The position numbers were made by a program, and so were the translations under genes. DNA of 64,000 nucleotides from Mobula hypostoma (Eukaryota): NCBI RefSeq assembly GCF_963921235.1, contig NC_086097.1, forward strand, positions 156,676,001-156,740,000. The letters run 5' to 3'. This document shows, in pieces, positions 1,548-60,200 of the stretch; within the stretch, counting starts at the first letter, position 1; the number at the start of each line of letters is the position of its first letter. Under the pieces are notes generated by a model that did not search any database, had not been told where the DNA came from, and was given only the letters and a program-made list of their open reading frames with translations.

Positions 1548-3132
1548 TTTTATTCCCAATCTTTGCCTCCTGCCAATCAGTCAATGCTTTCTCCATGCTA
1601 GTGTCTTCCCTGTAATACCATGGACATTTACCTTGTTTTGCAGCCTCAAGCGTGGCAGTACATAACTTCCACTGATTCTCCTTTGTCTATCTTACTACTT
1701 TACTTCTTCAAGGAATTCCAACAGATTTGTCAGGCAGGATTTTACATTAAGGAAATCATGCTGACTTTGGCCTATTTCATCATGTACCTTCAAGTACCCT
1801 GAGACATCATCTTTAACAATCGACTCCAACATCTTCCTAACAACTGAAGTCAGGCTAACTGTTCTATAAGTTTCTTTCTTCTGCCTCCCTCCCCTCTTGA
1901 AAAGTAGAGTGACATTTGTTTGCAATTTTCTAGTCCTCGGGAACCATGCAAGAATCTAGTAATTCTTGAGAGACTAGTACCAGTGCCTTCTCTTTCAGAA
2001 TCCTGAGGCATAGTCCATCTGGTCCAAGTGACTTATTCACTTTCAGACCTTTTGGCTTCACAAGCACTTTTCTCTAATAATAGCAATTGTGATCACTTCT
2101 GCCCCCTGCACTGTCTTCCACAGTGAAGGTGGATGCAAATACTTATTTAATTCATCCTCCATTTTCTAGTCCCCCATTACTACCTCTGCAGTATCATTTT
2201 CCAGCAGTCCAATATCTACTCTTGCCTCTCTTTACTCTTTAATATCTCAAAAAATCTTTTGGTATCCTCTTTGATATTATTGGCTAGCTTAGATTCATAT
2301 TTCATCTTTTCCCTCCTTATGGCTTTTTAGTTGACTTCTGTTGTTTTTTCAAAGTTTCCCAATCTTCTAACTTGCCACTGTTTTTTGCTCTATTATATGC
2401 CCTCTCTTTCGCTTTTCTGTTGTTTTTGACACCCCTTGACAGCCACGGTTGCATCATCTTGCCTTTAGAATACTTCTGCTTCTTTCTGATGTACCTATCC
2501 TGTGCCTTCTGCATAGCTCCCTGCTAGTGTCCCCTTCCAATCAACTATGGCAAGCTCCTCTCTCAGGCATCTATAATTCCCTTACTCCACTGTAATACTG
2601 ATACATCTGACTTTAGTTCCTCCTTTTGAAATTTCAGGATGAAGTCTATTATATTATGATCACTGCTTCCCAAGGGTACCTTTACTTAATCAAATTCAGT
2701 TCATTACACAACACCCAATCTAGAATAGTTTTGCCCTCTTTGGCTGAACCACAAGATGCTCTAAAAAGCCATCTCATAGGCATTCTATAATTTCTCTCTT
2801 GGGATCCAGTACCACCCTGAATTTCACAAACTACCTTCATATTTAAATCCCCCATAACAATCATAACATTGCCCTTTTGACATACATTTTCTATCTCCTA
2901 TAATAATTTGTTGTCCACAATCTGGCTACTCTTTGGAAACCTGCATATAACTCTCATCAGCGTCTTTTTTACCTTTTCAGTTTCTTAACTATACCACAAG
3001 GATTCTACATTTTCCAATCCTATCTCTTTTAAAAGATTTGATTTAATCTTTTACCAACAGAGCCATGTCACCACCTCAGCATTTCAATACAATGAGTATC
3101 CTTGGATGTTAAGCTCCAAACTATGATCTTTC
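1548..3132 (-). mobile_element. CR1 LINE ORF2 (endonuclease to RT N-terminus), degenerate; same copy as 1-890
   Basis: ORF fragments NVTLLFKRG...YRTVSLTSVV.K.LE, KSCLTNLLEF and VMGDLN...ILDWVLCNE. Confidence 0.88.
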
Positions 3133-4513
3133 ACCCTGCCCTCAAGTTTACCTGGTCCATTTCCGACACCTCCCTCCCCTTTCTAGATCTTTCTGTTTCT
3201 ATCTCTGGAGACAGCTTATCTACTGATGTCTTCTATAAGCCGACTGACTCTCAGAGCTATCTGGACTATTCCTCTTCTCACCCTGTCTCTTGCAAAAATG
3301 CCATCCCCTTCTCGCAATTCCTCCGTCTCCGCTGCATCTGCTGTCAGGATGAGGCTTTTCATTCCAGGATGAGGGAGATGTCCTCCTTTTTTAAAGAAAG
3401 GGCTTCCCTTCCTCCATCATCAACTCTGCTCTCAAACACATCTCCCCCATTTCACGCACATCTGCTCTCATTCCATCCCCACCACCCCATTAGGAATAGG
3501 GTTCCCCTTGTCCTCACCTACAACCCAACCAACCTCCAGGTCCAACATATAATTCTCCGTAACTTCCGCCACCTCCAACGGGATCCCACCACTAAGTACA
3601 TCTTTCCCTCCCCCCCCCCCGCTTTCCGCAGGGCTCGCTCCCTACGCAACTCCCTTGTCCATTTGTACCCCCCCATCCCTCCCCACTGATCTCCCTCCTG
3701 GCACTTATTCTTGTAAGCGGAACAGGTGCTACACATGCCCTTACACTTCCTCCCGCACCACCATTCAGGGCCCCAGACAGTCCTTCCAGGTGAGGCGACA
3801 CTTCACCTGTGAGTTGGCTGGGGTGATATACTGCATCTGGTTCTCCCGATGTGGCCTTCTATATATTGGTGAGACCCGACACAGACTGTGAGATCATTTC
3901 GCTGAACACCTATGGTCTGTCCGCCAGAGAAAGCAAAATCTCCCAGTGGCCACACATTTTAGTTCCACGTCCCATTCCCATTCTGATATGTCTATCCACG
4001 GCCTCCTCTACTGTAAAGATGAAGCCACACTCAGGTTGGAGGAACTACACCTTATATTCCGTCTGGGTAGCCTCCAACTTGATGGCATGAACGTTGGCTT
4101 CTCAAACTTCTGCTAATACCCCATCTCCCCCTCGTACCACATCTGTTATTTATTTATATACACACATTCTTTTTCTCTCTCTCCTTTTTCTCCCTCTGTC
4201 CCTCTCACTATACCCCTTGTCCATCCTCTGGGTTTTCCCCCCCTCCCCCTTTTCTTTCTCCCTAGGCCTCCTGTCCCATGATCCTGTCATATCCCTTTTG
4301 CCAATCACCTGTCCAGCTCTTGGCTCCATCCCTCCCCCTCCTGTCTTCTCCAATCATTTCAGATCTCCCCCTCCCCCTCCCACTTTCAAATCTCTTACTA
4401 ACTCTTCTTTCAGTTAGTCCTGACAAAAGATCTCGGCCCGAAACGTCGACTGTACCTCTTCCTAGTGATGCTGCCTGGCCTGCTGCATTCACCAGCAACT
4501 TTTGTGTGTGTTG
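3133..4513 (+). mobile_element. Penelope-like element (Neptune-type), 5'-truncated, frameshifted RT C-terminus plus GIY-YIG
   Basis: Motifs LPFLDL, YKPTDS.SYLDYSS.HP, CKRNRCYTC and VIYCI..SRCGLLYIGET. 12-bp TSD CTATGATCTTTC at 3121-3132 and 4514-4525. Confidence 0.93.
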
Positions 4514-7175: not shown

Positions 7176-7388
7176 AATTCAAACAACACACATAGAAATT
7201 GCTGGTGAACGCAGCAGGCCAGGCAGCATCTATAGGAAGAGGTACAGTCGACGGTTCAGGCCTAGAGTCTCGGCCCGAAACGTCGACTGTACCTCTTCCT
7301 ATAGATGCTGCCTGGCCTGCTGTGTTCACCAGCAATTTTTACGTGTGTTGCTTGAATTTACAGCCTCTGCAGATTTCCTCATGTTTGC
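7176..7388. mobile_element. Fold-back (inverted) pair of Penelope 3' ends
   Basis: Arms 7176-7262 and 7272-7358 are reverse complements with few mismatches. Direct repeat CTATAATTCA at 7172-7181 and 7393-7402. Confidence 0.9.
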
Positions 7389-19480: not shown

Positions 19481-20145
19481 CCCCAAGATAGTTTGTTACC
19501 CCACATTTACTCATTTACTCCTACAGCAAGAAGCAGAAATCAGGAGTTTATTGAGAGATTGTGGAGTTCACGATTTAAATGATATTCAATTGCAACAGAA
19601 GACTTTAAGGTAGTTTCAAAAAATTATCAGAACATAGTGGGGTTATAATTCAACTTTGGTATCACTTTCTTATTATTCAGAACATATTTATTTCTGTTAA
19701 TAAAATAATCTTTCTATATCTACCAGTAAATCTGTGCTTAGGTGGTAATTTTCTTCATGCTGACAAGAAACATCATAAAAGAAGACAGTATCATTTATAT
19801 CCTCTGCTTTAGTGTTGCTTTATCTGTGGATGTTAACAATCAGTGGGGGCCAGCTGCTCTGTCATTCTGCTCACTTATTCTGTTGGAAAGGGAAAGTTTG
19901 TGAGGAGAATATGGGGGTTTTATTAGGGATATGCGGTACTGCTAAGTTGAAGGTGATATTCACTACCTGATCTCACATGTAAAAAGTAACATGTTAGTAA
20001 GATGGCAAATATCTATGATTTTGGTCATAGAATAAAAGCTCAAATTTCAAAGTTCAAAGAAAATTTTACTATCAAAGTACATATACAACCCAAAGATTCA
20101 TTTTCTTGTGGGCATACTCAGCTAATCTATAGAATAGCAACTATA

Positions 20146-20620
20146 TGAGGGGTGATTGATATGTTCGTGGCTTAAGGTAGAAGGAGTCAAATTTAGAAAA
20201 CCTAGCACATTTATTTTTCAACGTAGTCCCCTCCTACATTTACATACTTCGTCCAGCGGTCGTGGAGCATACGGATCTTGGACCTCCTGAAAGTGTCCAC
20301 AGATGGGTGATTTATTTGTTCGTGGCCTAAGGTGGAAGGAGATGAGTTATTAACTTCAAACTTTCTGCATAATCACTCAAGGTGTTGACCTGCATGTGCA
20401 TGTAATGAGAGCTGTATAACTCACCTCCTTCTACCTTAGGCCACGAACCTATCAATCACCCATCTGTGGACACTTTCTGGAGGTCCAAGATTCGTATGCT
20501 CCACGACCACTGGACTAAGTGTGTAGATGTAGGAGGGGACTATGTTGAAAAATAAATGTGCTAGGTTTTCTAAAATTGACTCCTTCTACCTTAAGCCATG
20601 AATATATCAATCACCCCTTG
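20146..20620. mobile_element. Mariner-derived fold-back MITE, copy 1
   Basis: TA TSD (20144-20145, 20621-20622) and about 200-bp inverted arms. 20490-20555 encodes IRMLHDHWTKCVDVGGDYVEK*. Confidence 0.9.
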
Positions 20621-20625
20621 TATAG

Positions 20626-22170
20626 TGTAATGTAATTGTTAGAAACATGCATAATTCACAAACACTGATATTGAGCTGGGGTTCACTTTAAGAGGCATAA
20701 TGACGTATTATGTGAAGTTCTGTTACCGTGCGTTTTGTGTTCAGTATCTAGAGTATAATAGATGAGTTATTATGGTCTTCCTTAAACATAAAACAGCTCA
20801 TGTTGTTTTATTTGCAAAAACCTACATTGGTGACCCTGATGCTCCAGGATGATTCCAGAATTATTGAACATGTTGGCTGATGCAGTCACTTTGAAACTGC
20901 CGGAGTTTTTGGAGAAAAATGCCATTGCTTGGATTGTACAAGCTGAAGCCCAATTCGTGCCATGAGAAATCTCTGCCAACAGCACCAACTGTTTATATGT
21001 ATTAGCATCACTCAGTAACTCCATGGAAGTGAGAGTGGTGAGTCTACTAGAGCACCCACCTGAACACAATAAAAAGTGATCGCTGTAAACTCATCTTTTA
21101 CAGACTTTTGCTGTCAGAGACTGAGCATGCCAAACAGTTGCTCTCCTTGCCTGGCTTCAGCAATGCTAAGTCACCATAGACCACATGCTGTCTCTCCTGG
21201 GAAATCACCATCCTTGTTTTATTTTTAAAAAACTCTTCATGCAGCAAATGCCTGATCAAGTTCACATAGCCTTTGCTAATGCACCCATGAAGGAGAATTG
21301 CATGAAAGAAGAGAATGTTAAAATAGCTAATTCTACACTTAGCCAGACAGTCGTGCATAGTTCCTTCTCTTTTCCTTGCCTCAGCCAGCTCAGTCAAAAA
21401 GCCCCCCAACATAAGTGAAACAGACTGCTAACTAATGCTGCAAAGCAGACTACATTGGGTTTGTGTTTTTACCACGCTCGCTTCGGTACTAACGCTAGGA
21501 AGTGCCAATGGCAATGCAACTTTGACAGTGCATCAGGACATCAAAGGTCTGTGAACTCTAAGTGCTCCAGCTGTCATGGACATCTAATATTCATTACGTA
21601 CACCTTTTCAGGAAAATGCTTCCAATGTGACACAGGTGCTCAAGTGAGTGTGGTGCCAGCATTGTCTATTGATGAGAAGGCAAAGTGTGATGAAACCTCA
21701 CTGGAGGCTGCCAGTAGCAGCAGGACCCGAACTTATGGGACATGGCAGGTGACACTCTGATTTAGAGGGTGATGTTACACATGGGAATTTGTCCTGGCTA
21801 AAGTGGATAGACCTCTGCTCGGTGAAGATTTCCTGTGTGCCCATGGACTGGTAGCTGATCTTAAGAACTGCCAGCTTGTGGATGTCAAGGACTTTGGGTC
21901 ATTGCTCTGTTCCTCCAGTAAGTTTCCCACAATGACTCTGTCAAGCACATGCACCACTGCATGGGAGTTTACTTCACCATTGGGTGATTTTCCAAATCTC
22001 ACAAAGCTCACATTCTCCACTGCAGTCACAAAACATGGGGTAGAGCACCACATCTCCACAACTGGCCCTTCAGTCTATTCCAGCTTTTCTGGGCAGACTG
22101 TACCCAGGAAAGCTGGCAACCGCAAAGGTTGAATTTGCCAACATGGAAAGATTTGGCATTGTATGCAGGT
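20626..22170 (+). mobile_element. CsRn1-like Gypsy LTR retrotransposon 5' remnant (LTR, PBS, gag, protease, start of pol)
   Basis: About 200-bp TGTA...TACA LTR (20626-20826). Gag AVTLKLPEF...W..QAEAQF, CHCC knuckle CFYHARFG..ARKC..QC, protease DTGAQVSV and PLLGEDFL, then KHGVEHHI.TTGP. Confidence 0.85.
20828..20841 (+). promoter_or_regulatory. Primer binding site, tRNA-Trp type
   Basis: TGGTGACCCTGATG one base after the LTR end. It equals TGGTGACCCCGACG after two CpG transitions. Confidence 0.75.
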
Positions 22171-36896: not shown

Positions 36897-37114
36897 ATTT
36901 GAACAACACACACAAACTGCTTCAGGAACTCAGCAGGACATGCAGCATCCATGGAAAAAAGTACAGTCAACGTATCGGGCCGAAACCCTCCAGTCTTGCC
37001 AGATGGCTTTCGCCTGAAACGTTGACTGTAATTTTTCCATAGATGTTGCATGGCCTGCTGAGTTCCTCCAGCATTTTGTGTGTATTGCTCGGATTTCCAG
37101 CATCTGCAGATTTT
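36897..37114. mobile_element. Second fold-back pair of Penelope 3' ends
   Basis: A minus-oriented arm to about 36995 and a plus-oriented arm from about 37005 meet within the hammerhead region. Confidence 0.8.
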
Positions 37115-41845: not shown

Positions 41846-41866
41846 GACCACCTTTTTTAAATTATA

Positions 41867-42486
41867 CGAGGGGTGATTGATAAGTTTGTGGCCTAAGGTA
41901 CAAGGAGTCAATTTTAGAAAACCTAGTATATTTAGTTTTCAACATAGTCCCCTCCTACATTTACACACTTAGTCCAGCGGTCGTGGAGCATACGGATCCC
42001 TTCTTTGTAGAAGTGGTCCACAGCAGGGGTGATTGATAAGTTGGTGGCCTAGGTAGAAGGAGATAAGTTATTAACTTCCAACTTTCTGCATAATCACTCA
42101 AGAGTTGCACTGCGCATGCATGTGCCAAGAGCATCTTGGACCTCCTGGTGGTCCATAGCAGGGGTGATTGATGAGTTCGTGGCTTTAGGTAGAAGGTGAT
42201 GAGATATACAGCTCTTGTTACACGCACGTGCAGTTCAACTCTTTGAGTGAAAATGCAGAATGTTTGAAGTTAATAACTCATCTTCTTCTACTTTAGGCCA
42301 CGAACTTATCAATCACCTCTGCTGTGGACCACCTCTGGAGGTCCAAGGCACCGACTTCTACAAAGAAGGGATCTGTAGGCTTCACGACTGCTGGACTAAG
42401 TGTGTAAATGTAGGAAAAATAAACGTGCTAAGTTTTCCAAATTGACTCCTTCTACCTTGGGCCACGAACTTATCAATCACCCCTCG
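41867..42486. mobile_element. Mariner-derived fold-back MITE, copy 2 (expanded)
   Basis: TA-CGAGGGGTGATTGATAAG...CTTATCAATCACCCCTCG-TA. The left arm on the minus strand encodes FYKEGIRMLHDRWTKCVNVGGDYVEN*. Confidence 0.92.
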
Positions 42487-45400
42487 TATGTCAATGATTT
42501 GGATGATGGAATTGAAGGCACTGTCACCAAGTTTGCGGATAATATGAAAATAGGTGGCGGGGAAGATAGAGTTGAGAAAGTGGGGCGACTGCAGAAGGAT
42601 GTAGACAGACTAGGAGAATGGACAAAAAGTAGCAGATTGAAGTGTACGGCCATGCACTTTGGAAGAAGGAGCAAAAGCGTAGATTATATTCTAAACTGAC
42701 AGAAAATTCCAAGGTGTCAAGGTACTTGGAAGTCCTCATGCAGGATCTCCTAAGGGATAACTTGCAGACTGAGTCGATGGCGAGGAAGGCAAATGTATTG
42801 TTAGCATTCATTTTGCGAGGACTGGAATATAAAAGCAAGGATGTAATGCTAAGGCTTTATAAGGCACTGCTGAGGCCTCATTTGGAGTATTGTGTGCAGT
42901 TTTTGGCCTCTTATCTAAGAAAAGATGTGCTGACTTTGGACAGGGTTCTGAGGAGGTTCACAAAACTGATTTCAGGAATGAAAGAATTATCATAGGAGGA
43001 ACATTTGATGGTTCTGGGCCTACACTCACTGGAATTTAGAAGAATGGGGATGGATCTCACTGAACCCCATCAAATGTTTAAAGACCAAAATAGAGTGGAT
43101 CAGGAGAGGACGCTTCCTATAGTAGGGTAGTCTAGATCAGAGGGAACAGCTTCAGAATAGAGGAATGTCCATTTGGAATGGAGTTGAGAGGAATTTCTCT
43201 AGCCAGAGGGTGGTGAATCTGTGGAATTCATTGCCACAGGTGGTGTGGAAGCCAGGTTGTTATGTGTATTTAATGCAGAAGTTGATAAGTGCTTGATTAG
43301 TTAGGACGTGAAAGGTTATGGGGAAGAATCAGGAATATGGGGTTGGGAGAGAAAATGGATCAATCATGATGAAATGGCAGAGGAAACTTGATGCGTTGGA
43401 TGGCCTAATTCTACTCCTTCCTCTTATGAGCTTATGGTCTTATTCCTCTCTGTGTGGCCTCCAAAGAAACCTATTATAAGCGAAATGTTTTGTTTATTTG
43501 GTAACAAATAGACTGAATTTAGCCAATCTCTACTACATAAACCATTCCAGACACAATATTCTCATCTCAAGAGAATTCTCATTCTAATGAGACAGATTCT
43601 TATCACCTCTCCTTATTTTAAACTTTTAGGATCATTCATTCTTTCTAAAACTACCCAGAATATAGTGTGTAGCTGAAAATTGTGTTACCATGGAGTAGAA
43701 CTGGATGACAAACATGACTTCTGACTAAAACACTGTACTACTGTAAAAGTGCTTTAATGTTGCCTGCAATAGCACAACTCACAAATGTCTCTGACTTCTC
43801 ATCTTTCTTTTCCAGTCCTGATGAAGGATCTCAGCCTAAAATATTGATTGTTTACTCTTTTTCCATAGATGCTGTCTGCTGACCTCCTCCAGCATTTTGT
43901 GTGTGTTGCTTGGAATCTATGACAGCATATTTTCTTATGTTTGTCACAAATGTCCATCTTCATTAATCCAAATAAATGTCAGTTCTGTTTTTCTTATAGT
44001 GCAATATACTTTCATTGACTGTTTCCTCTGCTATCTGAGGTTGTATTCAATATATATGCTTTAACACATTGCTCCAGAGCATCCTGTTGTCTAACTGTTT
44101 TCCCCAGCAATTAACCTTTCTTACATCTTTGACACCTTTTCCACACTGATTTGCAGTAAAGAGTTGCCAGTAACTAAGCTCTCTTGTCATGTGGTAAGGA
44201 GATGAATCAGGGACATTATTACAACACAAACAAAATGCTGGAGGAACTCAGCAAGCCAGGTAGCATCTAGGAAAAGAGTACAGTCGACAGTGTTAGAGTG
44301 AGTTTTTGGGTAGATGATTCATTTACATTTAAGTGGCTTTGGCCACCAGTCTTCTGTTTGACAAAGTACTGTGGATTGAGTTCACAACAATCATCATCAT
44401 CATCATCATCAGGTGCCATGCCCAGTTTGAGCTTTGACTGCCGTGGCCCACACACTCCTGTTTCGGGTCAAGTGGATCAATTCATTGGTATTCATTTCCA
44501 GTTCTCTGGCTGCTGTCTCCATCATCATTTGTCTTTGTCTTCCTCTTGCTTTCTTCCCTTCAATCTTTCCCATAATTACCATGCATTCTAACTCCTCTTT
44601 CCTCATCACAGGTTCAATGAAGTTACGTTGCCTTTCATGATCTCATACATTATTTCTCCTTTTGTGTTTGCTCTGTTCATAACATCCTTGTTAGATATTC
44701 GTTTCGTCCATGATATTCTTTGCATCCTCCTCAAAAACCACATCTCTGCTGTTTCAATTCGTTTCCTCATGTTACTAGATATTGTCCAACATTCTGAGCT
44801 GTATAACATAACTGGATAAATGTAACATTTCAGTACTCTGAGGCGGGTTGTCATGCCTAGTTTAGTATTGGTCAGAATACTCTTCATTCTCGCAAAGGTG
44901 TCTTTTGCCATCCCTATTCTTCTTTTGATGTCCATGTCACACCTGCCATCTGATCTTACCCAGCTTCCTAAGTAGCAAAAGTTCTGTACATGTTTTATGC
45001 GTTCCTCATTTATTCTCAGCCTGCAGATAGGATTCTTCTTCCTTTTGGATATCATCATACATTCTGTCTTTTTGCAATTGATAGATAGACCCAATGTTTG
45101 CACTTTCTTCAACAACTATATCAATTAAGTTTTGTAGTTCTTCCTCTGTGCTTGCAATTAACACCATGTCATCTGCATATCTGAAATTATTGATGTTTTC
45201 ACCTCCAACTTTGATTCCCAAGATGTCCCATATTTCTTGTAATATTGTTTCACTGTACACAGTAAATAAATCAGGCGAGAAAACATACCCTTGTCTAACA
45301 CCTGTCTTGACGTTCGTAAACTGACTCACTTCTCCATCTATTCTTACAGCGGCAGTTTGTTCCCAGTACAGATTTCTGATTAGGCGGAGGTCTTTCTAAT

Positions 45401-46060
45401 CTAGATCTAGAGTTTTCTGTAATATTTAAAATAACTTATTGTGCTTCACTTTATCAAATATTTGTGTGTAGTCGATAAAACAAACAATCTTTTTGCACTT
45501 GAATAGCTCATTCTGATAGTATCCTTAACATCAATATTGCATTTCTTGTACCCTTGTCTTTCACAAAAACATATTGTTCTTTACCTATTTCAGTTTGTGT
45601 CTTACTTTTAGCTCTTGTCATCAAAATTCTTAGAAGTATCTTGGTGATATGACTCATTAAACTTATTGTCCTAAGTAATTCACATTCTATTGCTCCAGCT
45701 TTCTTAGGAAGAGTGATAAATATTGATTTTTTCATCTCTTCTGGTATTATTCCAGTGTCATAAATGTCATTGATTAAATCAGTAAGTTTTTCAATTCCAT
45801 TATCTTCAAAGGCGATAATTTGTTCTATTACTAATTCATCAGGACCTGCTACCTTTCCTTTCTTCATCTTATTTATTGCGTTATGAACTTCAGATTTTAA
45901 AATACTTGGACCTTCAATATTTTTCTTAATTTCTGGTTTTTCACCTCAATCGTCTTCAAACAATTCTTGAATATACTCAGTCCATCTGTTCATAATCCCA
46001 TCTTTTTCCATGATAATGGTACCGTCCTTTGCTATCAAGCGTCCACCTGAAGAACAGAGG

Positions 46061-46194
46061 CAACATACATAAAAGTTTCTGGTGAATGCAGCAGGCCAGG
46101 CAACATCTCTAGGAAGAGGTACAGTCGACCTTTCGGGCCAAGACCCTTCATCAGGACTAACTGAAAGAAGAGCTAGTATTTGCCCATGTTTGCG
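46061..46194 (-). mobile_element. Short Penelope 3' repeat inserted into the RTE
   Basis: 13-bp TSD TGAAGAACAGAGG at 46048-46060 and 46195-46207. Confidence 0.92.
46123..46158 (-). ncRNA. Minimal hammerhead motif with mutated stem III
   Basis: Minus strand AGTC-CTGATGA-AGGGTCTTGGCCC-GAAA-GGTC-GACT. Confidence 0.65.
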
Positions 46195-47962
46195 TGAAGA
46201 ACAGAGGGGCTTTTTACCAGTGATATTCTTGATTTGTTGATGTAACCTTTTTGGATCAGTAATAGGGATTCTTTCTATTTGCTCACATTCCTGGTTTAAC
46301 CATTCTTCTTTGGCTTTTTGACATAAGCTTTTAACTTTTTTTATCTAAGGATTTATATTCTATAGGATTTGCTTTTTTCTGTATCCTTTCTTCCATTAGA
46401 TTTTTGATTTCATCTGTCATCCATTTATTCTTTGCGCTTATTTTCCTTTTTAGGAATCACTGACTTTGCTGATTCCACCAAGGCATCCTTTAGAGAGGTA
46501 AATTTCATTTCTACATGATTGCTATCATCTTCAACAGATTCTATTTCTAGACTTTGAAATCTATTCCTTACTTAATTGTAAAGTTTTGTCTTAAGTTTTC
46601 TTCTTCAGTTAATTGCAAGTAGTCAAGGGATTGTTCATGCTTTCGCTTCTTTAGTTTTTTAAAATTTACTTTGACATGACATACTACTGGGTATGGTCAC
46701 TATTACAGACTGCAGCTGGATATGTTTTGCATTGAGTCACTGAGTTTCTAAATCTGTGGTTTATAGTAATAAAGTCAACTTGATTTCTGGTGTTATCACC
46801 TGGACTTTTCCAGGTCCACAAGCTTCTTAGATGGTTTTTAAAGTAGGTATTCATAACGACCTGATTATTCATCTTGCACCATTCTACCCATTTCTCACCT
46901 CTTTCATTTCTTTCCCCGAGTCCAAATTTTCCTATGGTATTTCCATCAGCACCTTGTCCTACTTTAGCATTTAGATCTCCCATGACAAGAACAATATCTT
47001 GAGATTTGCATCCATTCTTTGCTTGTTGAAGGTCTTCATGGAATTTATCTATATCCTCATTTGTTCCATCTGTTGTTGGTGCATATACCTATATAGTTGC
47101 TAAATCAACAGGTTGTCTAACAAGGAGCACTCTTTCTGATATTGCCCAATGTCCTAAAACACTTTTTGCCATGTTTTCATCCATAAGCATTCCTACTCCA
47201 TTAGTATGGGATGTTCCACAAGAATAAATTAGTGTTTTATTTCTATCCTGACATGTTCCAGCACCTATCCAACGAACTACACTAATTCCCATGATGTTAT
47301 TCTTTAGTCTTTCCATTTCATTTATCACATTGTCTAATCTTCCTGCTTGATATAGGGTTCTTACATTCCAAGTGGCAATAATTTTCTTTTGTGTTTGAAT
47401 TTTATGAGCAGTGGCTTGATGATGGTCGGAGATCCCCTGCTGCCCAGAATCAACCTTACCGAGTGAAGCAGCTTCAGAATTGTCTTGAAGATCCTCTTGA
47501 TGCTGTTGTTGTGTGATACATTTTGTGGGTTTGACCATGGTTTTCTTAACAAATAGATTCTAGGAAACCTAGTATCTAGCAACGGTGGTTTGCTATTGCC
47601 TACCGTTGGGCGAACTAAAGAAATTGCCATTTCTCTTCCCAAATGTTTATCTGTCTGTACTATAGCCGTTGGCATTTGAGGTCCTAGCTCATCAGCCTTC
47701 TCCATCATAAGTTCAGTTACTGAACCTGCCGGATCTGCCGTTGGCCTTCGCTCGTATCCTGAGCTGGAACCCTTGCAGATGCTACCGTTTGGGGTCAGAG
47801 TGGCCCTGGGAGCAATGACTAAGGGGTAACTCCACTTTCCCCAAAGCTCTGAAAGTCCCTGATCAGAGCCTCATCACCAGTTGCAGATTAAAGTCATACC
47901 CAGGACCTTGCATTACAACAATGCATTTCCTAAAAGCTGTGAATATCAGAATACTAGCCAGA

Positions 47963-50610: not shown

Positions 50611-52009
50611 GTATCCATATGATGTTAAACAAAGAACTTGAGAGACAGGGGACTGTGTGTAATTCTTGTGTTTTGCACATAATGTGTAAAACACAAGAAT
50701 GTGCTTCTTTCCTGCTATAGAGAAATCTAAGTGTCCTCAGTTATTAATCTTCAATTCACTGAATCCCAGGCCTACATCTGATGTCTGAGAGCCACAAAGA
50801 AAATGTATGTGCACTGCATATGGATTGGTTTAGCCTAAGATGTATCACGCTCTGTTTTCAGTAGCTTCATATTCCAGAACATTGATGCACACAGCAGTGT
50901 TTTCGTCTCCTGCTGTGTTTGTTATTTTGTGCTCTGGGGTGCAGATAGGAAGACAAATAAAAAGGTAGGCAAATCTCAGCATCAATGATTCTGGTCAGTC
51001 TTCGAACACTGTGAAAGAACCAATAGAATATTCCATAGCATTGCTCATGGTCAGTGAGAGGAGTCAATCTTTGATTATGATGTATGTTATACAAAGGACA
51101 CATAGTGCAGTTTCATATAGAATATAGTTGATGTCCTGCAATGTTTGTAGCAACATGAACTAAAATATAATTAGCAAGTCCTTGCAACTCTTTCTTTACT
51201 TCATTATCATAAAGTAATCATTATTATTTACAAATGCTCTCCATGCCTTGCTTTTTTAACTATTAATTTCCTCTTTCTGGTTAATGTTTGTTGCTTTCTT
51301 ATTTTGCCTCCTCGACAAGATAATTTCACTTTCACCCTAGTACCCTCTATGGGAAAGTGAATCATACTGAGCTGAGGTGCATTTCATAGTTTAACAGACA
51401 GGAGGATTTTCATTCTGGGTTAATGTATGAAATAATAACTCTAAGTGAAGAAGAACAAGTGTGCTAACACTTTGAGAAAAAGGCCAGGAGAACTGTCTGA
51501 TGAATAGCTGATCCGATGTTGTCATTCTGCTCTGTCTCCAAATATCAACATTACTCCTAGTGTTTTTAGAAAAAGAGTCATAGAGTCATGGGGCAACACC
51601 ATAAAGAAATAAACCCACCATCCTATTCATCCACGCTGACCAAGATGTTCACCTAAGCTAAGTCCTATTTGCCTGCATTTGGCCTTCTAAATTTTCCCGT
51701 ACTGTACACGTATATGTACCTGCCCAACCAACTTTTAAATGGTGTTATTGTGCCTGCCTCTACCACTCCATGTGGCAGGAAATGCTCCAGCCTTTGAATA
51801 TAGAAGTCAGCCTATTTAAATGTTTTCCGTCCCAATTTAAGATTGTGCCATCTAGTTTTTGATTGGCTTTCTCTGGGCAAAAGACTGTGTGCATTTATTC
51901 CATCTACACTCTTTATGATTTTATATACCTCTATAAGGTGACCTCTGTCTTCAAATCTGCAAGGAATTAGCCTGCCTAACCTTTCTCCATATTTTAGGCC
52001 ATTTAGGCT

Positions 52010-53119
52010 ATTGAAATGGGTGGAGCATTGGCTGATAGGCAGAAAGCAAAGGGTGGGAATAAAGTGATCCTATTCTGATTGGTTACCGGTTACTAGTGGT
52101 GTTCTGCAGGGGTCAGTGTTGGGGCCGCTTCTTTTTACGATGTATATCGATGATTTGGATTATGGATTAAATGGTTTTGTGGCTAAGTTTGCGGATGACA
52201 CCAAGATAGGTGGAGGAGCAGGAAATGTTGAAGAAACAGAAAGGTTGCAGAGAGACCTAGTCAGTTTAGGAGAGTGGGCAAAGAAATGGCAGATGAGATA
52301 CAACGTTGACAAATGTACGGTTGTACATTTCGGAAGAAGAAATAATCGAGCAGATTATTATTTAGATGGGGAGAAAATTCAAAAATCGGAAGTGCAAAGG
52401 GACTTGGGGGTCCTCGTGCAGGATACCCTAAAGGTTAACCACCAAGTTGGATCGGCGGTAAGGAAAGCGAATGCTATGTTGGCATTCATTTCAAGAGGAA
52501 TAGTGTATAAGAGTAAGGAGGTGTTGATGAGGGTCTATGGGGCATTGGTGAGACCTCATTTGGAATACTGTGTGCAATTTTGGGCCCCTTATCTTAGAAA
52601 GGATGTACTGATGTTGGACAGAGTTCAGAGAAGATTTACGAGGATGATTCCTGGAATGCAGGGGCTAACATACGAGGAGCGTTTGTTGGCTCTTGGATTG
52701 TATTCATCAGAGTATAGAAGAATGAGAGGGGACCTCATAGAAACATTTCGAATGTTGAAAGGGTTGGACAGAGTAGATGTGGAAAGGTTGTTTCCCTTGG
52801 TGGGTGAGTCCAGGACAAGAGGCCATAGTCTTAGAATTAGAGAGTACCCAGTTAAAACAGAGATGAGGAGAAATTTTTTTAGCCAGAGGGTCGTGGATTT
52901 GTGGAATTCGTTGCCACATACAGCTGTGGAGGTCCGATCATTGAGGGTGTTTAAGGAGGAGATTGACAGGTATCTAATTAGTCAGGGTATCAAGGGATAT
53001 GGGGGAAAAGCCGGAAATTGGAACTAGATGGGTGAATAGTTTAGCTCATGGGGGAGCTGCGGAGCAGACTCGATGGGCTGAATGGCCTACTTCTGCTCCT
53101 TTGTCTTGTGATCTTGTGA
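52010..53119 (+). mobile_element. 5'-truncated CR1 with (TCTTGTGA)n tail
   Basis: 303-aa ORF 52116..53027 (LGPLLF, KFADD, HLEYCVQFW). Confidence 0.95.
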
Positions 53120-57322: not shown

Positions 57323-58679
57323 TATAGTTTGATTATGCCTCCATAATAATGGTGAGTATCTTTGCAGAGCATCTGACCTGACAACACACATTGTAAATTC
57401 ATTCTGATTAAAAGCTGGGTTTCATTTTTATCTCCCATCTGATCCATTACAACTGGGAATTGATTCAAATATCATTTTGTCTGAATGAATTCAAAACTGA
57501 TAATGATGTCAGCACTCAGCAGGCCAGGCAGCATCTCTGGGAGAGATATGGAGTAAATATTTCAGTTCTGTGACTAAAGTCGTGAAAAATATTTGAGCTG
57601 AAAAGTTACTTCTCTTTGCTGAGATACTGATGGCTTTTATTGTGGAATATGGGTCTCACTGAAACCTGTCATTTAATCCCAATCACTGATTTGAGAAAGT
57701 GGTGGTGAACCATTTTTTTAACCTATTGTCTTTGTGGTGAAGCTATGCAGCAGTGCTTTTAGGAAAGGAGTTCCAAGATTTGGATCCAACAACAATAAAG
57801 AATAGGTGGTATATTTCCTAGTCAGGGCTGTACATTAGTGTTCATGGTCACTGCCTGATATCCTTACTCATCTTGGTGATCAAAATGATAGATTTGGGAG
57901 ATGCTATTGGAGTAGCTGTCTTGAACATCTGCAGTCTTTACAGATAGGGTCACTGAAGTGTGTTGATTAGAGAAGGAATGAATGCTTAGAGTGGGGTTGC
58001 AAGAGAGCATGGAGTTATTAAAAGGTAAGGAGCATAGTTTTAACTTAATTTTTGGTGAAAAGCTAGATGTTGAAGGAGGCCATTCAGCCCTTTAAGTCTG
58101 TAAGAACCTATGAAATAAGAGCAGGAGTAGGCCACTTACCCCATCAATCTTTCACACCACATAATATAATATTAGCTTCAATTTTGTTTTCTGTGCCATA
58201 ACCCTCAATTCCCTGCTCTTCAAGACTATTTCCTGTTTAAATCCACCCAAAACACTCTGTGAAAGAGATTTCCAATGACTCACCGCAAGTTCTCAATTTC
58301 AAATGATTGCCTTCTAATCTTTCATGTAAACTCTTATCTTGAAACTCAAGGCAGTATTAAAGATAAGACGTACAGTTGGTTAGCATGATTGGTGGATGGG
58401 GAAGGGGTAAGAATAGGAGAGAGATATGAAGGGGCCTGATGATAGAAGGGCACGGAGATACCAGGAACTATGCATTCCAGTTAGTGGTGAAAAAGGAATT
58501 GTCATGATGTCAGAAAGAGTAACAGAAAGTAAGCAGCAAGCTCAAAGTTAATCTTCATGAATACTTATACTCTGATTCAAAATAATACATTAAATACATT
58601 AATTTATGGAATCAATGTCTGGGTTGAAAAATCCACCCAACTATTGACAAAAATAAAAGTTCTTTTAAAATGAAGAATG

Positions 58680-59226
58680 AATAATCAATCTTTTCAAGAT
58701 CTAAGCAGAACATAATGTCTCTGAGCCATTGAGTATGAGTGGGTGGGGTAACATCTCTCCACCTAAGAAGGACGGCATGTCTTAATTCGGACATAAAGTT
58801 CCAAAGGATGTGGGGACCTTTTCTTGAATATTTTCATAATTCCTGTTTAGATTAAGAGTTTATCTCTTCTTTTTTTTTTCTTTTGCATTTAAATCCCTTA
58901 CTTCCAGCTTCTTTCAGTTAAGACTTACATTTTTTTTGATGTGTAAACATATTATAGCTCAGTTAGTAGGCAATATACCTTCTTTTTATAAATACAGCTC
59001 TGTGGTGATACAAAGTTATGATTAACTTTTCTATATGTCGTAAGGTTGGCTTGGAGTTGGGGAGTGGGAGGGTGGGGTGGTAACTAACTTTATACGATTC
59101 TACTTTGGGTGCTTTTTCTTAACTGTTATGAACTGTACATTTGATATGTTTGTTTTGCACTGTATAACCCTCTTTTTTACTGTTTTTTTGTTGTTGCGTT
59201 GTAAAAACATATTAAAAAAAATTTTA
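58680..59226 (+). mobile_element. L1 3' end with 5' inversion
   Basis: Minus 58680-58782 encodes RHAVLLRWRDVTPPTHTQWLRDIMFCLDLEKIDY. Plus 58781-58855 encodes LNSDIKFQRMWGPFLEYFHNSCLD*. G-rich 3' UTR, A-rich tail and TSD AAAATGA(A/G)GAATG. Confidence 0.8.
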
Positions 59227-59329
59227 AAAATGAGGAATGGAGTAATCACAAAATGTTTCATTGACTGACTTACACACAACTTACTGGGCTGAATTGACAC
59301 CCATGTTTCATCTTGCTACTTAACATTAA

Positions 59330-60200
59330 AAATGGTAAATTAGTTGATTATCGTCACATGTACCAAGGTACAGTGAACAGCTTTTGGTATATAGTGTCCA
59401 TACAGAGCAGTTCATTATAATAGTGCATTGGGGTAGCACAAGGTAAATATAATAACAGGGTGCAGAATAATACGTCACAGTTCATGGGAAGTGTAGTGCA
59501 GTGCAGTTAAATAAGCTGCAAGGCTATTACAAGTTCAAGTTCGAGTTTATTGATATTTCAACCATATGCTTGTCAAATGAAACAAGGTTCCTCTGAACCA
59601 AGGTGCACAGCACAATACATATAACTCACACATAACACAAAAAGTAATTTTACCACAATTAATTCAAGAAATAATAAGGTGTATTTATGTCATAATTTAA
59701 AAATTAAACAGTATAACACAAATACCACTTCATATGTGGCAAGATCAAGGAGGTGGCAGGGAGTTCATTAGTCTCAGAGCCTGAGGGAAGAACATGTTTC
59801 CCATCCTACCGGTTCTTGTCCTAATGCTATGGTACCTCCTGCCGGATGGTAGGGAGTCAAAGAGATTGTTCCAACAAAGAGGTTGTTAGGAGAGAACATT
59901 TAAAATGCCTTGTGTATGCAGCGCACCTGGTAAGTTCCCGGATGGGTGGAAGACAGATACCAATGATCCTCTCAGCAGTCATCACAACCTTGCAGTCAGA
60001 TGCCTTGCAATTCCAGGTGGTGATGTTAACTGGTCAGTGCACTCTCAATGATGCTCCTATTGTTTAGAATGACGGTGGGGAGACATTACTCACCTCACTC
60101 TCCTCAGGAAGTGGAGACGATGCTGTGCTTTCTTGACTAAAGAGGTGGGTTTTAAGGACCAGGTGATGTTGGCCATTATGTGCACTCCCAGAAACTTGGT
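59330..60200 (-). mobile_element. Rex1/Babar-like LINE 3' fragments
   Basis: KFLGVHI..NITWSL..TSLVKKAQHRLHFLRR. Confidence 0.7.

Follow-up and report, generated by a model that had tools for sequence, protein, structure and literature searches.

A 5'-inverted L1-type insertion in the ray Mobula hypostoma, very probably made by twin priming

How does a retrotransposon copy come to carry its upstream part backward, and can the reaction that explains such copies in mammals occur in a cartilaginous fish? The window analysed here (the whole 64-kb stretch of Mobula hypostoma DNA, in whose positions all coordinates are given) holds an L1-type insertion of ca. 0.56 kb, in which ca. 100 bp of the ORF2 end lie inverted and are followed by the forward ORF2 end, the 3' UTR and a tail. 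Read from the sequence, this is the arrangement by which twin priming is recognised, i.e., a 5' piece that is inverted and a 3' piece that runs in sense and ends in the tail; the model reportedly goes back to Ostertag and Kazazian in 2001. An earlier note on this DNA had proposed that the geometry is the one predicted by twin priming, and our follow-up supports it, as both junctions show the predicted pairing. We consider it very likely that the insertion is the product of one L1 retrotransposition event completed by twin priming. Its parts are the following.

58663..58670, plus strand: L1 endonuclease-type site TTTT/AAAA, recognised from the sequence; the bottom-strand nick would lie between 58666 and 58667
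58667..58679, plus strand: left target-site duplication, 13-bp core
58680..58687, plus strand: stretch of ambiguous origin, probably continuing the left duplication (second primer), 7 of 8 letters as in 59241-59248
58678..58782, minus strand: inverted L1 ORF2 C-terminus, matching residues 1214-1248 of the full-length ORF2 protein P0052; the strictly L1-derived part is 58688-58782 if the duplication is 21-22 bp long
58780..58782, no strand: inversion junction, 2-3 bases common to both pieces
58780..58855, plus strand: forward ORF2 end with its stop codon
58856..59213, plus strand: L1 3' UTR, covered by many family contigs in all four sequencing runs
59214..59226, plus strand: A-rich family 3' end, with similar ends at loci L001, L002, L003 and L005
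59227..59248, plus strand: right copy of the target-site duplication, its 13-bp core ending at 59239 and a probable extension reaching 59248

On the minus strand, 58782-58681 encodes 34 residues (RHAVLL...LEKIDY), confirming the earlier reading of a split ORF2 C-terminus whose upstream part, ending in LEKIDY, is inverted; the alignment of this piece to P0052 (80%) extends to 58678. The downstream part had rightly been placed on the plus strand from 58781, where LNSDIKFQRMWGPFLEYFHNSCLD is encoded, although its stop codon does not follow straight after EYF and is found at 58853-58855. The 3' UTR and the A-rich tail that had been claimed are both present, the former T-rich and the latter consisting of eight A, TTTT and a final A (59214-59226), with no long poly(A); another family contig matches up to 59230. 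Only the last 60 codons of ORF2 survive in the insertion, the locus bears no sign of function, and this L1 copy is most likely dead and functionless.

To which family did it belong? A Pfam search with the 34-residue inverted peptide found nothing. With the same peptide, phmmer gave 46 matches, 39 of which are ORF2-like C-termini; the other seven (P0012, P0025, P0026, P0031, P0032, P0037 and P0039), long proteins with only short partial matches, were left out of the alignment. The full-length relative P0052 (1,273 residues) has endonuclease and reverse-transcriptase domains, with PF03372 and PF00078 above the cut-off and PF13966 below it, and its residues 15-1243 match human L1 ORF2p (8sxt_A) with an E-value of 2.9e-196, R2 proteins reaching 1e-21 or weaker. 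The window peptide is identical to the end of P0052 at 27 of 34 residues (28 of 35 for the C-terminus overall), and the window C-terminus is identical to the Mobula hypostoma record P0006 at 22 of 30. Among the 120 matches listed, the one descriptive source name is "LINE-1 reverse transcriptase-like". The 3' side of the insertion is also of the L1-clade kind, with an A-rich end and a duplication at TTTT/AA, which at 21-22 bp would be just over the range of ca. 10-20 bp. Judged by the domains of P0052 and its similarity to ORF2p, the family would belong to the L1 clade, in a sense broad enough to take in Tx1. Fish L1-type ORF2 relatives include P0052 and P0054, and named ones come from Oreochromis, Oryzias, Triplophysa and, with P0006, Mobula hypostoma; their C-terminus is like that of the insertion, which keeps no more than the 60 codons.

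Two side observations concern the same family. At 58678-58837, its ORF2 end is similarly close to that of a teleost (Thalassophryne P0051, 25/35) and of a ray (Mobula P0006, 22/30), and the named full-length relatives are teleost; the piece is short, and the likeness may hint at a transfer between rays and teleosts or just at slow evolution. The record P0006, which is named PDZK1-interacting protein 1 isoform X2, ends in the ORF2 C-terminus of this L1 family, which reflects either exonisation or a faulty gene model. Within the 64-kb window, no further copy of the family was found.

The earlier note had further described the two segments as apparently adjacent, a reading to be given up if they came from different families or did not adjoin in the consensus; they proved to be of one family and adjacent in it. 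In a comparison of 324 proteins (120 of them from a CR1 search), the inverted peptide has a match in 190, and in 130 both pieces are matched no more than 60 residues from each other; 124 of these 130 have exactly one residue between the pieces, and the remaining six leave gaps of 0, 0, 2, 6, 6 and -3. At the nucleotide level, contigs of four sequencing runs from three samples (4 of the 17 runs listed) were aligned to 58200-59699, and organisms A, B and C were compared, organism D (share 0.06-0.07) being left out. All four runs contain an opposite-strand joint 58678-58780, which is the signature of an intact copy on an inverted reference. In organism C, the loose ends that precede 58780 (44 and 43 records, agreement 0.77-0.78) yield a consensus that continues the inverted piece and leaves 2 bases between it and the forward piece, and at locus L004 both pieces are present in order. 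Once aligned, the inverted pieces of four related proxy loci are 72-74% alike.

Four more joints of organism C (58678-58824, 58687-58809, 58691-58780 and 58724-58809) were considered as further inversions and rejected, as they run from the inverted into the forward piece; we take them for un-inverted copies that bear deletions or have diverged in places. No other inverted copy of the family was found among the 15 joints listed, of 31 in all, and a 545-bp reference cannot count inversions. The summed depth of the family is hundreds-fold over the flank depth, a figure that is not a copy number.

The inverted form is also seen outside the window. In organism B, record 17 of run X7 aligns ungapped to 58200-58838, with 9 differences, and it crosses both the left junction and the inversion junction with more than 31 bases on each side. 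Since the same inversion junction is present in a second species, the inversion is not an assembly error, and since organism B carries the inverted form, this form is older than the split of A and B, organisms that are 1.4% apart. In run X2, possibly the window's own sample, two records match without differences, record 9 over 58200-58729 and record 15, which spans the right duplication, over 59152-59376. At 12 of the 22 element positions listed, at least 90% of the X2 family depth has another letter, and the copy is therefore at least 2% diverged from its family. No empty site was found among these contigs. Contig cover is absent from 58350-58649 and 59250-59299 in organism C (X9, X11) and from 59250-59299 in organism B; such holes prove nothing.

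The consensus of the L1 endonuclease is 5'-TTTT/AA, and the insertion sits directly behind TTTT at 58663-58666. Here the earlier note had seen a 13-bp duplication with one mismatch (58667-58679 and 59227-59239), which is indeed present: at one mismatch or fewer, the 13-mer occurs at one other place in 128 kb (both strands). It is the length that probably has to be revised. The two copies go on matching to 58687 and 59248, respectively (19/22 columns, one gap), and of 128,037 random places, 300 (0.23%; locally, 21 of 7,451) give a 7/8 extension at one of three offsets. With chance giving such an extension so rarely, the duplication, which we infer from its two copies alone, is probably 21-22 bp long rather than 13. 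The added stretch, 58680-58687, is ambiguous, being also nearly identical to inverted L1. The letter at 58686 gives D, a residue found in none of the 97 motif-bearing relatives (R in 54, K in 34, H in 6, and C, T and Q in one each), and it is the same as the letter in the right flank; taken with the extension match, this odd residue suggests that 58680-58687 was probably supplied by the primer and not by L1.

The duplication also resembles the L1 RNA at one particular place. By eye, and with the organism C consensus as the RNA, 17 of 21 letters of the left copy pair with it if one bulge is allowed, and 14 of 22 letters of the right copy pair ungapped, with two G:U pairs in addition; at the 13-bp boundary, there are 2 exact pairing bases. 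The site on the L1 RNA at which the duplication pairs is exactly where the inverted copy starts. In four related loci, pairing of at least 14/22 is found at 6 of 8,959 places, and the homologous site is outside their top three. The copies of the duplication differ at 3 of 22 columns, where ca. 1 would be expected from the at least 12 private changes in 545 bp; all three differences bring the left copy nearer to L1, and both substitutions fall at positions that would oppose a G of the target to a U of the RNA. Most simply, these would be three later changes in the right copy, and its plain decay would explain the same pattern of a left copy shifted toward L1.

At the inversion junction, the inverted match extends as far as 58782 (L004) and the forward one sets in at 58780, i.e., the pieces overlap by 2-3 bases. 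The Arg codon at this point is AGA in two of six loci and CGA in two of six, and the preceding codon has C or T as its last letter in all six, where the window has A. The overlap would qualify as a junction microhomology of 2-3 bases, a short one whose upstream letters come from relatives only 72-77% alike, and a microhomology of this length is often due to chance.

Under twin priming, which accounts for all the features of the locus, a nick made by the endonuclease in the bottom strand at TTTT/AAAA would have freed a T-rich end, and this end would have primed reverse transcription on the A-rich end of the RNA, giving a first cDNA of ca. 450 bases that reached back to 58780. The top strand would then have been cut 13 or, more likely, 21-22 bases downstream. 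The resulting overhang would have annealed to the same single RNA molecule, a little inside the ORF2 end, and started a second cDNA, ca. 95-100 bases long, in the opposite direction, after which the cDNA ends would have joined via the 2-3 shared bases and the gaps would have been filled. The L1 sequence lost under the primer would amount to 2 bases with the short duplication or to 11-12 bases with the long one.

Could the copy have been an ordinary, 5'-truncated one whose first 100 bp were inverted only afterwards? By chance, the duplication has an imperfect inverted match inside L1, and recombination or template switching between the two might have turned the segment round. Target and L1 site indeed make up an imperfect inverted repeat (14-17 matches) with arms ca. 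100 bp apart, and the left copy of the duplication is intermediate between target and L1 in sequence. A reciprocal exchange, however, would have left the rest of the duplication, in reverse, where the two pieces meet, and its reverse complement is absent there (best 8/15 and 5/9); moreover, the left break falls exactly at the duplication and the inverted form is common to organisms A and B. We regard a later inversion as quite improbable. Still less do we expect a repair-type joining, in which host end-joining would take over after the first strand and the top-strand overhang would copy the L1 RNA or a sense-strand piece, possibly of a second molecule, producing the same geometry without the L1 reverse transcriptase priming twice. 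Its product would be indistinguishable from that of twin priming by sequence, the shortness of the inverted piece and the long, imperfect pairing agree with it, and passages of PMC4245944 argue that host factors decide whether inversions form. On the other side, that the pieces adjoin so exactly is most simply explained by a single RNA on which the first cDNA was stopped at the primer, and this repair route strikes us as very improbable. Two independent L1 fragments side by side in opposite orientation, or an assembly error, are scarcely credible and largely refuted, for the family is abundant (2,228-3,877 records per run on the stretch, other repeats included) but the pieces come from an element of several kb and yet adjoin to within 2 bases, the inverted one has neither UTR nor tail, a single duplication flanks both, and the contig of the second species spans the junction.

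Among the CR1, RTE and Penelope-like copies of the window, no other 5' inversion was found. At 51710-52988, a pair of CR1 3' fragments is arranged head to head, no more than 5 bp apart; as a twin-primed copy this pair was rejected, its protein ranges (aa 694-799 and 475-802) overlapping as those of two copies. Among named matches, the CR1 frame of the window is closest to Pristis pectinata (75%), Chiloscyllium (64%) and Hypanus (62%), with birds and turtles at 42-54%. The near-palindromes at 7176-7358 and 36901-37090 each consist of two head-to-head copies of the ca. 90-bp end of an element that we take to be Penelope-like, and the MITE-like elements at 20140-20626 and 41864-42489 are palindromic, related to each other and provided with long terminal inverted repeats. 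On the minus strand, 44606-47559 is a near full-length LINE, presumably RTE-like, with its ORF pieces in order and a ca. 130-bp Penelope-end piece at 46050-46178.

Twin-primed L1 copies of human and chimpanzee share with the ray copy the inverted 5' piece, the sense 3' piece with its tail and the single flanking duplication (a presumed one in the ray), as well as the endonuclease site, the pairing of the duplication end with the RNA, the short deletion and the junction microhomology. The host differs, being here a cartilaginous fish, and so does the pairing of primer and RNA, which is long and imperfect here (ca. 20 bases) and 2-5 bases long in ca. 70% of the primate cases. Excerpts of 10.1101/2024.08.27.596794 give medians of 0.54 kb for the inverted and 1.51 kb for the forward piece in tumour L1 (here ca. 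0.1 kb and 0.45 kb), describe TTTT/A motifs at L1 sites, and report internal deletions in 66% of inverted L1, with a median of 14.5 bp. By the figures in passages of PMC2912911, 639 of 2,068 primate-specific L1 are inverted (31%), and 577 of 605 human inverted L1 have 5' microhomology, the other 28 having none. The duplications of L1-clade elements peak at 13-15 bp in human, cow, opossum and zebrafish, according to part of PMC4245944. The mechanism of twin priming in mammals is treated in passages of PMC11484939, PMC4476161 and PMC13174262; PMC5389967 and PMC6007223 name it only in their reference lists, and PMC2666801 has no passage on "inversion".

For fishes, our literature search found no report of an inverted L1 in a genome, though the work of Ichiyanagi and Okada (2006, 2008) on zebrafish L1 may contain some. 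Sections of PMC4245944 describe 5' inversions only with human L1 in human cells, bar one that zebrafish Nimb-2_DR gave in chicken DT40 cells; no inversion was seen there for human L1 in cells of the chicken, and both the element and the host are argued to decide. As far as those sections describe it, the Nimb-2_DR insert is likewise a fish LINE inversion outside a mammalian cell, but it belongs to the Nimb clade and is one event in cell culture, whereas the ray copy is a natural germline L1-type copy common to two species.

The insertion is thus a clean example of a known mechanism in a new host group, and no new mechanism. The earlier note had taken it as a fish example that bears on how old the mechanism is. 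The host is indeed a cartilaginous fish, and the reaction can occur there; a single copy, however, shows occurrence and not frequency, and therefore says little by itself on the age of twin priming, nor does it date the mechanism, because any long target overhang may be enough to bring twin priming about. That twin priming is routine for the L1 of cartilaginous fishes, and hence at least as old as the jawed vertebrates and not a feature of human cells, is possible and somewhat doubtful. That this holds and that, in addition, the primer and the RNA formed a 20-base duplex whose mismatches were partly rewritten from the RNA is unlikely. As a natural germline inversion made by an L1-type family of a ray, the insertion indicates that the reaction is not confined to mammals, and the chromosome-level genomes of rays make the frequency of such inversions easy to count.
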